A DNA stretch of 64,000 bases from Escherichia coli. GTDB lineage: Bacteria; Pseudomonadota; Gammaproteobacteria; Enterobacterales; Enterobacteriaceae. Below the pieces are notes generated by a model that was not told the origin of the DNA, did not search any database, and saw only the letters and a program-made list of their open reading frames with translations. Location: the NCBI RefSeq assembly GCF_030013595.1, contig NZ_CP122768.1; one strand, written 5' to 3'. Position numbers and translations under genes: made by a program. Shown piece after piece: positions 35,003 to 62,174 of this stretch. Each line of letters begins with the position of its first letter. Position 1 is the stretch's first letter.

Positions 35003-36541
35003 ATGGCTTTTGCCTCATTAATTGAACGCCAGCGCATTCGCCTGCTGCTGGCGTTATTATTCGGTGCCTGCGGAACGCTGGCCTTCTCTCCTTACGACGT
35101 CTGGCCTGCGGCGATTATTTCGCTGATGGGGCTTCAGGCGCTGACCTTTAACCGCCGTCCACTCCAGTCTGCCGCTATTGGCTTTTGCTGGGGATTTGGC
35201 CTCTTTGGCAGCGGTATTAACTGGGTCTATGTCAGCATCGCGACCTTTGGCGGAATGCCTGGCCCGGTTAACATCTTCCTGGTGGTACTGCTGGCGGCGT
35301 ATTTGTCGCTGTATACCGGATTATTTGCTGGCGTGCTGTCGCGTCTGTGGCCGAAAACCACCTGGCTGCGCGTGGCGATTGCCGCCCCTGCTCTCTGGCA
35401 AGTGACCGAGTTTCTGCGCGGTTGGGTGCTGACTGGTTTCCCGTGGTTACAGTTCGGCTATAGCCAGATTGATGGCCCGTTAAAAGGGCTGGCACCGATA
35501 ATGGGCGTGGAAGCCATTAACTTCCTGCTAATGATGGTTAGCGGCCTGCTGGCACTGGCGTTGGTCAAACGCAACTGGCGTCCGATGGTGGTGGCCGTCG
35601 TGCTGTTCGCCCTTCCCTTCCCGCTGCGTTACATCCAGTGGTTTACCCCGCAACCGGAGAAAACCATTCAGGTTTCGATGGTTCAGGGCGATATTCCGCA
35701 ATCGCTGAAGTGGGACGAAAGCCAGCTTCTTAATACGCTGAAAATTTATTACAACGCAACGGCACCGCTGATGGGCAAATCATCGTTGATTATCTGGCCG
35801 GAGTCGGCGATAACCGATCTGGAAATTAATCAGCAACCGTTCCTCAAAGCACTGGACGGTGAGTTGCGTGATAAAGGTAGCTCGCTGGTCACCGGGATTG
35901 TCGACGCGCGTCTCAATAAGCAGAACCGCTACGATACCTACAACACCATCATCACGCTGGGTAAAGGTGCGCCGTACAGCTACGAATCAGCCGATCGCTA
36001 TAACAAAAACCATCTGGTGCCGTTTGGCGAGTTTGTCCCGCTGGAGTCGATTCTGCGTCCGTTAGCACCGTTCTTTGATCTGCCGATGTCGTCGTTCAGC
36101 CGTGGGCCATATATCCAGCCGCCGCTGTCGGTGAATGGTATTGAGCTTACTGCGGCCATTTGCTATGAGATCATTCTCGGCGAGCAAGTGCGCGATAACT
36201 TCCGCCCGGATACCGACTACCTGCTGACTATCTCCAACGATGCGTGGTTTGGTAAATCTATTGGTCCATGGCAACACTTCCAGATGGCGCGAATGCGTGC
36301 GCTGGAGCTGGCGCGCCCACTGTTGCGCAGCACCAACAACGGCATTACGGCGGTGATTGGCCCGCAGGGTGAGATTCAGGCGATGATCCCGCAGTTCACC
36401 CGCGAGGTGTTAACCACTAACGTGACGCCGACTACCGGACTTACACCGTACGCACGTACCGGCAACTGGCCGCTGTGGGTGCTGACGGCACTGTTTGGTT
36501 TTGCTGCTGTGCTGATGAGCCTGCGTCAACGACGTAAATAA
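35003..36541 (+). CDS. lnt: Apolipoprotein N-acyltransferase Lnt (512 aa)
   Basis: ORF 35003..36541; N-terminal polytopic domain plus C-N hydrolase domain. Confidence 0.95.
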
Positions 36542-36640: not shown

Positions 36641-36656
36641 TGGCACATCTATTGCT
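36641..36656 (+). promoter_or_regulatory. Candidate sigma54 (-24/-12) promoter element upstream of gltI
   Basis: TGGCACatctaTTGCT fits TGGCAC-N5-TTGCW with correct GG-to-GC spacing. Confidence 0.5.
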
Positions 36657-36937
36657 TTGTTATACAAGGCAAAGCTTGAACCAGCATCAGTACAACCCGG
36701 TTGCACCACAGCAATCCACGGGTAGCACCAAAAGAGTGCATTTTAAGAATTTTGCTTCGGAATGGTGCGGCGCATCTCGCAAAAACAAACAATAAAACAG
36801 CAATATCTTTACATTTAGCCAAACTAAATGTTACCTAACAGGCACAACACTGCACAATAAAGTTGCAGACGATAACAACACAAACACTCACAACGGGTAT
36901 CCATGCGTTCTTAACGCAGAAGATAAAGGAGTTGGAT

Positions 36938-37846
36938 ATGCAATTACGTAAACCTGCCACAGCAATCCTCGCCCTAGCGCTTTCCGCAGGACTGGCACAG
37001 GCAGATGACGCCGCCCCGGCAGCGGGCAGTACGCTGGACAAAATCGCCAAAAACGGTGTGATTGTCGTCGGTCACCGTGAATCTTCAGTACCTTTCTCTT
37101 ATTACGACAATCAGCAAAAAGTGGTGGGTTACTCGCAGGATTACTCCAACGCCATTGTTGAAGCAGTGAAAAAGAAACTCAACAAACCGGACTTGCAGGT
37201 AAAACTGATTCCGATTACCTCACAAAACCGTATTCCACTGCTGCAAAACGGCACTTTCGATTTTGAATGTGGTTCTACCACCAACAACGTCGAACGCCAA
37301 AAACAGGCGGCTTTCTCTGACACTATTTTCGTGGTCGGTACGCGCCTGTTGACCAAAAAGGGTGGCGATATCAAAGATTTCGCCGATCTGAAAGGCAAAG
37401 CCGTAGTCGTCACTTCCGGCACTACCTCTGAAGTTTTGCTCAACAAACTGAATGAAGAGCAAAAAATGAATATGCGAATTATCAGCGCCAAAGATCACGG
37501 TGACTCTTTCCGTACCCTGGAAAGCGGTCGTGCCGTTGCCTTTATGATGGATGATGCTCTGCTGGCTGGTGAACGTGCGAAAGCGAGGAAACCAGACAAC
37601 TGGGAAATCGTCGGCAAGCCGCAGTCTCAGGAAGCCTACGGTTGCATGTTGCGTAAAGACGATCCGCAGTTCAAAAAGCTGATGGATGACACCATCGCGC
37701 AGGTGCAGACCTCCGGTGAAGCGGAAAAATGGTTTGATAAATGGTTCAAAAACCCAATTCCGCCGAAAAACCTGAACATGAATTTCGAACTGTCAGACGA
37801 AATGAAAGCACTGTTCAAAGAACCGAATGACAAGGCACTGAACTAA
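36938..37846 (+). CDS. gltI: Glutamate/aspartate periplasmic binding protein GltI (302 aa)
   Basis: ORF track 36863..37846; start at internal Met (MQLRKPATAILALALSAGLAQA signal peptide). Confidence 0.93.
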   Translation: MQLRKPATAILALALSAGLAQADDAAPAAGSTLDKIAKNGVIVVGHRESSVPFSYYDNQQKVVGYSQDYSNAIVEAVKKKLNKPDLQVKLIPITSQNRIPLLQNGTFDFECGSTTNNVERQKQAAFSDTIFVVGTRLLTKKGGDIKDFADLKGKAVVVTSGTTSEVLLNKLNEEQKMNMRIISAKDHGDSFRTLESGRAVAFMMDDALLAGERAKARKPDNWEIVGKPQSQEAYGCMLRKDDPQFKKLMDDTIAQVQTSGEAEKWFDKWFKNPIPPKNLNMNFELSDEMKALFKEPNDKALN

Positions 37847-57937: not shown

Positions 57938-58732
57938 TCATAATAATTGCGGCGGCGCAAAGCGACGGTTGTTTAAAACGGGAAGTTGCGCGCGCACCTG
58001 ACGCACACGTTCGGGCGTCACTTCCGCCATAATGAGTGCAGGCATTTCTGACGCTGCCGCAATGGTGACGCCAAAGGGATCTATAATCCGGCTTTGCCCG
58101 ATATTTTTGTTCCCGCACTCCCCCGCCGCCACCATATAACAGGTGGTATCCAGCGCACGAGCGGCAAGCAACGTTGACCAGTGATGCTCTTTGAGCGGCC
58201 CACGAACCCAGGCGGCAGGAAGTACCAGGATTTCAGCTCCCTGTAATGCCTGTGCCAGCGCCAGCTCTGGAAAGCGTAAGTCATAACAGGTCATCAGACC
58301 GACCTTCATCCCTTCCACCTCCAGTAACGGAGCTATTTCATTACCAGCATCAACATGGCGTGATTCCTGAATGGCAAATGCATCATAGAGATGCAGTTTG
58401 GCATAACGGGCGACGATGTTTCCTGCCTGTAGCGCCACCAGCATATTCCATGCGCGCCCCGGCGTTGAAGGAACATGAATCGTCAGAATTGTCGTCATCA
58501 TGTTACGTTTACTTTCTCGCCGTAAACGTCCGAGGAATTCGCCTTCCAGCAGCTGTGCTGATTTAACCGATAGATCTGCATCATGATCATCGCGCGCCAG
58601 CAATGCTTCCGGCAGGACAAACAGCGATACGTCGTTTTCCGCCGCCTGCGCCATCAACGAGGCACAAATCTCAGCGTTCTTTTCCCACACAGATGTAACA
58701 GCAAACTGTCCTGCGGCAACCAGCATTGCCAC
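57938..58732 (-). CDS. ybeM: C-N hydrolase (nitrilase-superfamily) protein, uninterrupted 264-aa ORF
   Basis: ORF 57938..58732; catalytic triad candidates E42 (LPE), K112 (YAKLHL), C149 (MTCYD). Confidence 0.8.
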
Positions 58733-58821: not shown

Positions 58822-59205
58822 GTGTTACAACTTCTTTTAGCAGTTTTTATTGGCGGTGGTACGGGAAGCGTGGCGAGATGGCTGTTAAGTATGCGATTTA
58901 ACCCGCTGCATCAAGCGATTCCGTTGGGGACGCTGGCTGCAAACCTGATTGGGGCATTCATCATAGGAATGGGATTCGCCTGGTTTAGCAGGATGACGAA
59001 CATTGATCCAGTGTGGAAAGTATTAATCACCACCGGATTTTGTGGCGGTCTAACAACCTTCTCAACATTTTCGGCAGAAGTGGTGTTTTTGTTACAAGAG
59101 GGCCGCTTTGGCTGGGCGTTACTGAACGTTTTCGTCAACCTTTTGGGGTCTTTTGCCATGACCGCACTGGCTTTCTGGCTGTTTTCCGCCTCAACCGCAC
59201 ACTAA
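58822..59205 (+). CDS. crcB: Fluoride channel CrcB/FluC (127 aa)
   Basis: Four-TM small membrane protein with GGxTTFSTF motif. Confidence 0.93.
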
Positions 59206-59211
59206 AGACCA

Positions 59212-59240
59212 AAAAAAACCCGCTGATTAAGCGGGTTTTG
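59212..59240. terminator. Bidirectional terminator between crcB and cspE
   Basis: AAAACCCGCT-GATTA-AGCGGGTTTT hairpin. Confidence 0.75.
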
Positions 59241-59258
59241 AATTCTTGCTGACGTATC

Positions 59259-59468
59259 TTACAGAGCGATTACGTTTGCAGCAGAAGGGCCTTTGGCACC
59301 GTTAGTGATTTCGAACTCTACGCGCTGACCTTCAGCAAGAGTTTTAAAACCATTAGTCTGGATTGCAGAGAAGTGTACGAACACGTCTTTGCTGCCGTCT
59401 TCCGGAGTAATGAAACCGAATCCTTTGGACTCATTAAACCACTTAACGTTACCTTTAATCTTAGACAT
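59259..59468 (-). CDS. cspE: Cold-shock-like protein CspE (69 aa)
   Basis: ORF track 59259..59552; start at [20 protein letters not shown] (RNP1 motif). Confidence 0.95.
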
Positions 59469-59642
59469 CAAAATTACCTTTACATGAAAAATAGACACAA
59501 ATGCTGTGTCGGTTACCAGTACACCAATTGTGGTACGCTTTGTCCAGTGCAACTTTACTAAAAAGTGATAAAAGTCGCGTTATTTTTGATGTTAATTATT
59601 TTACTCATTGATTTTAAAGAGTTTACTAAAATTTCATTTGTC

Positions 59643-60203
59643 TCAAAACTGAAAGCTCATCCAGGCAAAGTACACATTGCCATTGTTATAGGTACCCGGA
59701 ATGTAGGTCATCTGAAAAGTCACTGGACCATAACCCACAGAGGCCAATGGCAGTAGAACCGGGAGAGGGATGTAATTCCAGTTATCGCGTGCCGTTACGC
59801 CAGCGGTGAATCCCAGACCTAAATGAAAATTTTCATCCGCCAGCGGTCGCCAGGTACTTTCCCATCCGTATCCGGCAATCGGTTCCCATTTGTTCCACGA
59901 GTCCTTAAATGCCATGGCATACAGGCCATGCCAGTTTCCTTTTTCATCCCAACGCGACAGGCCAAAACCGCCACCCCACGGTCGCTCGTTATAGCGATCG
60001 GTTTTTTCTTTGTCGTAAGCGAAACGAGCATGCCAGGTGATGGCAGGAATATATAAATCATAATGTTCTGGCTGTTGCCAGGTTTGTGTAATATTTTCTC
60101 CAAACGTTGTCATCCACTCATCTGCGTTAGCAAAAACTTTACCAACGCTGATTAACTGAATAAAAACAAAGGAAAAGATAGCGACATATTTACTCACGTT
60201 CAT
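59643..60203 (-). CDS. pagP: Lipid A palmitoyltransferase PagP (186 aa)
   Basis: ORF track 59643..60227; start at [16 protein letters not shown]; outer-membrane beta-barrel. Confidence 0.93.
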
Positions 60204-60685
60204 TTGTGACCATAAAACATTTATCAAAAATCTACTACTAGCATAGCAAAGCTACAATTAACATAACCTTAATAGCCCCAACATAAAGAACAATCTGAAT
60301 AGCTGCTCTATTTATTTCCGCTTGTTTAAGTTAAATATTTCCGCGCATCGATTAAAGATGATGTATCGTTTTCTGCGATGGGAATAGTCATAAAAAAACC
60401 AAGTCTTTTTTGATGACAAAATACAACCAAGAAAAAATTACTTTATTTTTTAATAGGATACAAAAAACCTCTTAACGAAGAATATATTATATATCGTCAA
60501 CCTATGCTCATGTTAGATTATTTTTTGAGCGCACAGCCGCAGCTAACACCATTGCAATTAACAAATTTGCATCAATCCACCATCAATTTACACACATTAT
60601 TATGTGATAATTGCCAACCGCTAAATATGCGTTTTGTTATCTATGTATAAAAACAGCAAATTCAATGTCTTAATGGCAGTTTTTC

Positions 60686-60699
60686 TTGATTTTAATCAG
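60686..60699. promoter_or_regulatory. Candidate FNR site (TTGAT-TTTA-ATCAG) upstream of dcuC
   Basis: 9 of 10 match to TTGAT-N4-ATCAA, about 90 bp upstream of the dcuC ATG. Confidence 0.45.
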
Positions 60700-60788
60700 C
60701 ATTCATCGCCAATTTATTGGGCATATTTTTTCCTTAAGCTTTAGGAATTTTTTATTATTTACTTTGGGGCCTGGAGACAGGAAAAATT

Positions 60789-62174
60789 ATGCAGACATTC
60801 ATTGAACTCCTTATTGGGGTTGTGGTTATTGTGGGTGTAGCTCGCTACATCATTAAAGGGTATTCCGCCACTGGCGTGTTATTTGTCGGTGGCCTGTTAT
60901 TGCTGATTATCAGTGCCATTATGGGGCACAAAGTGTTACCGTCCAGCCAGGCTTCAACAGGCTACAGCGCCACGGATATCGTTGAATACGTTAAAATATT
61001 GCTAATGAGCCGCGGCGGCGACCTCGGCATGATGATTATGATGCTGTGTGGCTTTGCCGCTTACATGACCCATATCGGCGCTAATGATATGGTGGTCAAG
61101 CTGGCGTCAAAACCATTGCAGTATATTAACTCCCCTTACTTGCTGATGATTGCCGCCTATTTTGTCGCCTGTCTGATGTCTCTGGCCGTCTCTTCCGCGA
61201 CCGGTCTGGGTGTTTTGCTGATGGCAACCCTGTTTCCGGTGATGGTAAACGTTGGTATCAGCCGTGGTGCAGCTGCTGCTATTTGTGCCTCCCCGGCGGC
61301 GATTATTCTCGCACCGACTTCAGGGGATGTGGTGCTGGCGGCGCAGGCTTCCGAAATGTCGCTGATTGACTTCGCCTTCAAAACAACGCTGCCTATCTCA
61401 ATTGCTGCAATTATCGGCATGGCAATCGCCCACTTCTTCTGGCAACGTTATCTGGATAAAAAAGAACACATCTCTCATGAAATGTTAGATGTCAGTGAAA
61501 TCACCACCACTGCCCCTGCGTTTTATGCCATTTTGCCGTTCACGCCGATCATCGGAGTGCTGATTTTTGACGGCAAATGGGGTCCGCAATTACACATCAT
61601 CACTATTCTGGTGATTTGTATGCTGATTGCCTCCATTCTGGAGTTCATCCGCAGCTTTAATACCCAGAAAGTTTTCTCTGGTCTGGAAGTGGCTTATCGC
61701 GGGATGGCAGATGCATTTGCAAACGTGGTGATGCTGCTGGTTGCCGCTGGGGTATTCGCTCAGGGGCTTAGCACCATCGGCTTTATTCAAAGTCTGATTT
61801 CTATCGCTACCTCGTTTGGTTCGGCGAGCATCATCCTGATGCTGGTATTGGTGATCCTGACAATGCTGGCGGCAGTCACGACCGGTTCAGGCAATGCGCC
61901 GTTTTATGCGTTTGTTGAGATGATCCCGAAACTGGCGCACTCTTCCGGCATTAACCCGGCGTATTTGACTATCCCAATGCTGCAGGCGTCAAACCTCGGC
62001 CGTACCCTGTCACCCGTTTCTGGCGTAGTCGTTGCGGTTGCCGGGATGGCGAAAATCTCACCATTTGAAGTCGTAAAACGCACCTCGGTGCCGGTGCTTG
62101 TTGGGCTGGTGATTGTTATCGTTGCTACAGAGCTGATGGTGCCAGGAACGGCAGCCGCGGTCACAGGCAAGTAA
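60789..62174 (+). CDS. dcuC: Anaerobic C4-dicarboxylate transporter DcuC (461 aa)
   Basis: ORF 60789..62174; polytopic membrane protein. Confidence 0.93.
   Translation: MQTFIELLIGVVVIVGVARYIIKGYSATGVLFVGGLLLLIISAIMGHKVLPSSQASTGYSATDIVEYVKILLMSRGGDLGMMIMMLCGFAAYMTHIGANDMVVKLASKPLQYINSPYLLMIAAYFVACLMSLAVSSATGLGVLLMATLFPVMVNVGISRGAAAAICASPAAIILAPTSGDVVLAAQASEMSLIDFAFKTTLPISIAAIIGMAIAHFFWQRYLDKKEHISHEMLDVSEITTTAPAFYAILPFTPIIGVLIFDGKWGPQLHIITILVICMLIASILEFIRSFNTQKVFSGLEVAYRGMADAFANVVMLLVAAGVFAQGLSTIGFIQSLISIATSFGSASIILMLVLVILTMLAAVTTGSGNAPFYAFVEMIPKLAHSSGINPAYLTIPMLQASNLGRTLSPVSGVVVAVAGMAKISPFEVVKRTSVPVLVGLVIVIVATELMVPGTAAAVTGK

Follow-up and report, generated by a model that had tools for sequence, protein, structure and literature searches.

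Class II FNR promoters, among them those of narG, dmsA and nirB and the model promoter FF-41.5, carry FNR at position -41.5. In this geometry the 14-bp site extends from -48 to -35 and is followed, after 22 nt, by the -10 hexamer at -12 to -7. The FNR-dependent anaerobic induction of dcuC belongs to the textbook physiology of E. coli; DcuC is a C4-dicarboxylate carrier that is thought to export succinate in glucose fermentation. The closest described system is dcuC of E. coli K-12 in the study of Myers et al. (2013, PLoS Genet 9:e1003565; PMC3688515), who cite Zientz et al. 1999 for the FNR dependence of the gene. Among the predicted FNR sites in their Table S6 is CTGATTAAAATCAA, at 655,281 (U00096.2) and labelled dcuC/pagP; it has a PatSer score of 12.38, lies at an FNR ChIP-seq peak and does not overlap Fis, H-NS or IHF enrichment (PMC3688515). 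The PWM score of the site was barely over threshold (ln p -10.96 versus a cutoff of -10.75). The peak, located by ChIP-seq and ChIP-chip at about 655,298-655,340, was called by four algorithms, three for ChIP-seq and one for ChIP-chip (Table S5), and was seen in the wild type and in an hns stpA double mutant (Table S7). In the same study dcuC is listed as 'Activated' by FNR in RNA-seq, with differential expression in only one of three fnr transcriptome data sets (Table S8), and its aerobic/anaerobic ratio of 0.05 (Table S12) amounts to about 20-fold higher expression under anaerobic conditions. The main text and table count dcuC among the directly FNR-activated operons (category 1) and remark 'TSS not in peak region'. 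In the spacer between pagP and dcuC, sigma70 ChIP-seq gave two anaerobic peaks, at 655,235 and 655,742 (U00096.2; Table S1; PMC3688515).

The DNA analysed here, referred to as the window, is a stretch of 64,000 nucleotides from E. coli. With a probability of about 0.9, the region between pagP and dcuC in the window is read as the E. coli pagP/dcuC divergent control region, composed of two independent promoter modules, with an FNR-activated class II promoter on the dcuC side.

The pagP CDS (59643-60203, minus strand) encodes a lipid A palmitoyltransferase of 186 aa, and the dcuC CDS (60789-62174, plus strand) encodes an anaerobic C4-dicarboxylate transporter of 461 aa. Both were taken from the list of open reading frames (ORFs) and from RefSeq annotation, in the case of pagP that of K-12 and of strain VCSW7. 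The products share 98.4% (PagP) and 99.6% (DcuC) amino acid identity with their K-12 counterparts. The divergent pair of genes was correctly named in the preliminary description of the locus. In RefSeq, both K-12 and a strain with 99.7% identity have the pagP start codon at the ATG that corresponds to 60203; position 60228, formerly used as the left edge, is where the longest possible pagP ORF begins, with a TTG. Because pagP starts at 60203, the spacer comprises 60204-60788 and is 585 bp long; the 560 bp given earlier was wrong by 25 bp. In K-12 the spacer measures 588 bp and contains no annotated feature. Among Escherichia species the identity of PagP is just 62-87%, while that of DcuC is 98-99% and that of cspE DNA 99-100%. 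In two other Escherichia species (L004 and L005) pagP seems to be partly deleted or degraded, with 39-60% DNA identity and partial tblastn matches only. Farther from the spacer, at 57938-58732 on the minus strand, an uninterrupted ORF of 264 aa is the ybeM homologue (deaminated glutathione amidase), which is annotated as an intact CDS in VCSW7 too and as a pseudogene in K-12.

As previously described, the spacer is very AT-rich and contains homopolymer runs. Its G+C content is 30.9%, compared with 51.4% for the whole window, a composition of the AT-rich H-NS type, and twelve homopolymer runs of 5-7 nt were counted. A 701-bp query across the spacer had matches in 5413 of the 5426 complete E. 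coli genomes, and in every case pagP and dcuC were the annotated neighbours. The soil isolate VCSW7 came closest (99.7% identity); over the whole 701-bp region, identity is just 90-99% in most complete E. coli genomes. In the clinical isolate E. coli 23AR1101 (L085), an element of the IS5 family (ISKpn26-like) seems to fill nearly the whole spacer, an insertion that would take away both promoters. IS5 insertions in this spacer arose repeatedly under laboratory selection with kanamycin (PMC6307192).

The FNR binding site, TTGATTTTAATCAG, is located on the plus strand at 60686-60699, with its centre at 60692.5. Nine of the ten positions of TTGAT-N4-ATCAA are matched, the mismatch being a G in place of the final A. 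The distance to the dcuC ATG (60789) is 90 nt from the 3' end of the site and 96.5 nt from its centre. The preliminary description had reported an FNR-like 14-mer with the same position, the same 9/10 score and a distance of about 90 bp, and its coordinates are exact. Taken by itself, a 9/10 match to the FNR consensus is weak evidence and is not significant. Four FNR-type matches of at least 9/10 were observed in the window versus 2.4 expected, and at least one match at 9/10 was present in 8.2% of 5000 dinucleotide-preserving shuffles of the spacer. The match being insufficient alone, the reality of the FNR site rests on conservation and on the published ChIP-seq data. In K-12 (NC_000913.3) the same 14-mer is found at 656,058-656,071, where it is unique in the fetched locus and likewise 90 nt away from the dcuC ATG; CTGATTAAAATCAA is its reverse complement. 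The 150 bp around the site are 99% identical to K-12. The anaerobic induction of dcuC expected from the 14-mer agrees with the literature, in which the identical sequence lies under an FNR ChIP-seq peak and dcuC is activated by FNR and induced about 20-fold anaerobically (PMC3688515). The FNR reading of the 14-mer is thus correct but already known, and was published to the exact site.

Conservation was assessed for 80 dcuC loci and the 3 kb upstream of each, with one genome per species of the Enterobacteriaceae. The genera in this set include Escherichia, Salmonella, Citrobacter, Enterobacter, Klebsiella, Raoultella, Lelliottia, Leclercia, Buttiauxella, Kosakonia and Trabulsiella. A site of the form TTGAT-N4-(A/G)TCA(G/T) is present upstream of the dcuC ATG in all 80 loci, typically at a distance of 93-106 nt, and also in K-12 and VCSW7. 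In about 33 of the 80 loci pagP is absent from the 3 kb upstream and the FNR site is still present, which indicates that the site belongs to dcuC and travels with dcuC, not with pagP. In an alignment of 20 genera the region upstream of dcuC could not be aligned except for two blocks, TTTaTTGATTTnnaTCAG and TTtATTcGGCAcATT. When 81 unique sequences are anchored on the site, their information content is highest at GGCAnATT and at both half-sites for FNR. CAnATT follows the FNR site after 22 nt in every one of 83 sequences (the strict pattern fits 73; ten have CA(A/G)ATT at the same offset, assigned by eye). The left half-site is of the FNR type, TTGA, in 82 of the 83; in Salmonella arizonae it reads GTGAT and is more CRP-like (GTGATTTTAATCAG). 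Within E. coli, the 60-bp core (60676-60735) was found at 98% identity or above in 5376 of the 5426 complete genomes. The dcuC promoter core is missing from about 50 of these 5426 genomes.

The predicted -10 hexamer of dcuC, CATATT (60722-60727, plus strand), corresponds to the family consensus CAnATT within the conserved block TTtATTcGGCAcATT. The -35 element is poor or absent, with candidates that match TTGACA at 0-2 of 6 positions, and a generic sigma70 promoter scan returned no promoter-like site in 60100-60900. Both results are expected if the promoter is activator-dependent. The invariant 22-nt gap to CAnATT would place the FNR centre at -41.5, where class II activators bind. The geometry between the site and the -10 hexamer leads to a predicted dcuC transcription start at 60734 (+/-2 nt) on the plus strand, which corresponds to about 656,023 in NC_000913.3. 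The sigma70 peak at 655,235 is located about 52 bp from the centre of the FNR site, towards dcuC, and about 11 bp downstream of the predicted start. From the predicted start, the geometry and the conservation, we infer that the dcuC promoter is of class II with FNR at -41.5. The comparative prediction of a start near 60734 is a modest addition to published knowledge, and the only one made here; the phrase 'dcuC promoter' was not found in the literature searched. The predicted 5' UTR is about 55 nt long and unstructured, folding less stably than 198 of 200 shuffles (z = +1.4). A riboswitch or attenuator in the dcuC leader was ruled out, the leader being less structured than the shuffled controls. 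The Shine-Dalgarno sequence of dcuC is AGGAA (60779-60783, plus strand); AGGGG occupies this place in other genera. Farther upstream, the block ATTAACAAATTTGCATCAATC (60557-60577) is nearly invariant across Escherichia in an alignment of eight Escherichia spacers and is not conserved outside this genus; the direct repeat CATCAAT-N4-CATCAAT comes after it. A CRP reading was considered for TGTGATAATTGCCAAC (60606-60621) and rejected; the second half-site is weak, and the sequence is not conserved in other Escherichia.

On the other side of the spacer, the likely -10 hexamer of pagP is TATGCT (60240-60245, minus strand), which is invariant across Escherichia species in the alignments. Twelve nt upstream of TATGCT lies a PhoP-box-like direct repeat, TATTAAggttaTGTTAA (60258-60274, minus strand), which was detected by a pattern search with 3 mismatches. 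The repeat resembles (T/G)GTTTA-N5-(T/G)GTTTA, at or overlapping the -35 position, and its position is conserved across genera. The order tGTTAAG-N4-cATTcA, 11-12 nt, then TAnnnT is kept in Escherichia, Salmonella, Citrobacter, Klebsiella and Enterobacter. With 3 mismatches the pattern is permissive (183 matches in the window versus 130 expected), and it is therefore the cross-genus conservation that carries weight for the PhoP box. E. coli crcA (pagP) is a PhoP target, as Minagawa et al. are said to have reported in 2003. The PhoP boxes of Salmonella pagP have been footprinted (PMC3335776). A 15-bit ArcA site without ChIP support was predicted for dcuC/crcA (PMC3798270); this prediction and the direct repeat at 60258-60274 may be the same sequence. 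The sigma70 peak 655,742 (U00096.2) maps onto the pagP -10 region of the window. Its signal was 37 aerobically and 366 anaerobically, a difference of about 10-fold (Tables S1 and S2), and with an aerobic/anaerobic ratio of 0.29 for crcA (Table S12) the mRNA is 3.4-fold higher anaerobically (PMC3688515).

Deletion of hns derepresses E. coli pagP 18-fold, and three SlyA sites were proposed in the pagP promoter (PMC4147861). Induction of pagP in E. coli is dependent on RcsB (PMC6106083). The pagP-dcuC spacer was flagged 'HNS' in genomic SELEX (PMC3946193). The preliminary description had regarded the spacer as typical of divergent promoter regions bound by nucleoid proteins. This holds for the pagP side, in view of the hns derepression and the SELEX flag, but not for the FNR site, which is without enrichment for Fis, H-NS or IHF. 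The H-NS nucleation motif TCGWTWAATT was uninformative, with 191 matches in the window versus 186 expected. A genomic SELEX peak of RpoN and NtrC at 655,760 was assigned to the dcuC/pagP spacer (PMC8743547). The spacer was searched for a sigma54 promoter, and none of its sequence made a credible GG-N10-GC site. The best candidate, TGGTAAAGTTTTTGCT (60129-60144, minus strand), has the correct GG/GC spacing and 2 mismatches, and may explain the peak at 655,760. It lies inside the pagP CDS and is, being intragenic, probably non-productive. Elsewhere in the window, between lnt (35003-36541) and gltI (about 36863-37846), a perfect sigma54 consensus, TGGCACATCTATTGCT, was observed at 36641-36656 on the plus strand; it is presumably the known NtrC/sigma54-dependent gltIJKL promoter. 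The lnt-gltI spacer is uninterrupted here and has an IS5 inside in K-12.

The middle of the spacer (60290-60556) is fast-evolving and AT-rich, with frequent indels and no conserved element found, and is likely H-NS/SlyA territory. The bin 60339-60488 is 90% identical to K-12, versus 98-99% in the flanking bins, and 44-53% identical to other Escherichia species, versus a background of about 88%. Two pairs of hexamers in this part were proposed as promoters on the basis of SELEX (PMC3946193). One, ATGACA-17-AATTAC (60413-60441, plus strand), is the proposed constitutive promoter in the dcuC direction in K-12. Its -10 hexamer reads AATTAT in K-12 and AATTAC here, with the final T lost, and no conservation of the pair was found in the Escherichia alignment. 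The other, TTAAGA-17-TAAAAA (60447-60475, minus strand), is a putative promoter in the pagP direction, about 237 nt upstream of the pagP ATG. Nine ORFs of at least 15 aa were found in the spacer; all lack a Shine-Dalgarno-like motif, and not one remains intact throughout the Escherichia species, in accordance with the earlier statement that the spacer holds no ORF with a ribosome binding site. The ORF of 48 aa is frameshifted in ST131. That a TTG ORF of 36 aa (60634-60744) is intact within E. coli is due only to its overlap with the conserved promoter core. A scan of 59000-61500 against Rfam (E up to 1) gave no match in the spacer, and a terminator scan found no terminator-like structure there. 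The properties of a small-RNA gene, namely promoter, terminator, conservation and transcript, were not found in combination in the spacer. The only real Rfam match in 59000-61500 is the leader of cspE (59211-59569 for cspE and leader, minus strand), which matches RF01766 (cspA thermoregulator) with 123 bits versus a gathering score of 78, as is to be expected for a paralogue of cspA. The sole hint of a further transcript comes from Shigella flexneri 301, where a small RNA in the pagP direction, Ssr31, had been predicted in the pagP-dcuC spacer; it was positive in RT-PCR only (PMC4782007). This RT-PCR result is equally compatible with a pagP leader.

Several other explanations of the 14-mer were weighed. 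It could be a chance match in AT-rich DNA without any regulatory role, as might be thought from the four matches against 2.4 expected, the 8.2% of shuffles and the PWM score barely over threshold. A chance sequence would, however, have to occur in 80 of 80 loci of the Enterobacteriaceae while its flanks cannot be aligned, to keep an invariant spacing to the -10 hexamer and to coincide with an FNR ChIP peak from four callers (PMC3688515). This reading has effectively been refuted already, and the likelihood left to it is negligible. A second reading holds that the 14-mer is used by CRP or by another protein of the CRP/FNR family, which would bring dcuC under catabolite rather than oxygen control. 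Sites for CRP and FNR differ mainly at one position per half-site (GTGA versus TTGA), and Salmonella arizonae carries GTGATTTTAATCAG. The TTGA left half in 82 of 83 sequences stands against this, and dcuC is reportedly not repressed by glucose, a result of Zientz et al. from 1999 that also counts against CRP. Both FNR occupancy and fnr-dependent expression have been published (PMC3688515), and control by CRP is regarded as extremely improbable.

It is also conceivable that the FNR site acts on pagP besides dcuC, or instead of it. Such an action would explain the anaerobic rise of pagP and sigma70, that is, the crcA ratio and the increase of the sigma70 peak 655,742 (PMC3688515). The site is, however, about 490 bp away from the pagP ATG and is equally conserved where pagP is not the upstream neighbour. 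Moreover, the passages of Table S8 covered here list dcuC and contain no occurrence of pagP or crcA (PMC3688515), and an ArcA-type site was predicted at the pagP end (PMC3798270). An effect of the FNR site on pagP is considered very unlikely. Finally, the spacer might encode an unannotated product, such as a small protein, a small RNA like Ssr31, or an extended pagP leader that starts at a distal promoter. The positive RT-PCR for the predicted Ssr31 (PMC4782007) and the SELEX binding of RNA polymerase, together with the predicted hexamers in the middle of the spacer (PMC3946193), point in this direction. Against it stand the absence of an Rfam match and of a terminator-like structure in the spacer, and the lack of any ORF with a Shine-Dalgarno sequence or conservation, the 48-aa ORF being frameshifted in ST131. 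The spacer middle is also the part that evolves fastest, with 44-53% identity between Escherichia species and many indels, and RT-PCR does not show whether an RNA is discrete or is part of a pagP leader or a read-through transcript. An additional product of the spacer is judged unlikely. Little likelihood is likewise given to the combined case of either a discrete pagP-sense transcript or long leader from about 60440 (which would be Ssr31) or an anaerobic action of FNR on pagP at a distance. If true, a pagP-sense transcript from the spacer could mean that lipid A palmitoylation is under a further, so far unrecognised level of control.

With the region read as two independent promoter modules, the following mechanism is proposed. 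FNR with its [4Fe-4S] cluster dimerises only without oxygen and binds TTGATTTTAATCAG. The site would take the place of the absent -35 element, 22 nt upstream of the weak -10 hexamer CATATT. Bound FNR would recruit RNA polymerase with sigma70, which gives the anaerobic induction of DcuC, the succinate-efflux/C4-dicarboxylate carrier. On the opposite side, the PhoP box (60258-60274) and the -10 hexamer (60240-60245) would drive pagP. The pagP promoter is silenced by H-NS, and this silencing would be relieved by SlyA and RcsB. Approximately 270 bp of weakly constrained AT-rich DNA keep the two modules apart.

The result has little significance beyond confirmation. A small comparative addition is the FNR site together with CAnATT at invariant spacing over 83 sequences from some 20 named enterobacterial genera. 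The predicted start could help in annotating the promoter of dcuC in RegulonDB or EcoCyc-style resources, or in designing an anaerobic reporter.

In comparison with known systems, the dcuC promoter resembles class II FNR promoters in its site of the TTGAT-N4-ATCAA type, the missing -35 element and the anaerobic, FNR-dependent activation, as well as in the 22-nt gap to a -10 hexamer that keeps the A at position 2 and the T at position 6. Unlike in the class II examples, the -41.5 position in dcuC derives from a predicted start. The dcuC site (9/10, final A replaced by G) is weaker than the sites of nirB or narK. The pagP side is similar to 'architecture IV' of Salmonella pagP (Zwir et al. 2012, PMC3335776), with a PhoP direct repeat overlapping the -35, a conserved -10 and AT-rich upstream DNA, although the E. 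coli half-sites TATTAA and TGTTAA differ from the footprinted Salmonella box CTGTTTATAGTTTGTTAAG. In its control by H-NS, SlyA and RcsB it is the described E. coli pagP promoter (PMC4147861, PMC6106083). The dcuC FNR site of K-12 (Myers et al. 2013) shares with the one described here the same 14-mer, the 90-nt distance and the flanking genes. Nothing of substance differs between the two: the spacer is 585 bp long here versus 588 bp in K-12, and residue 2 of DcuC is Gln here versus Leu.
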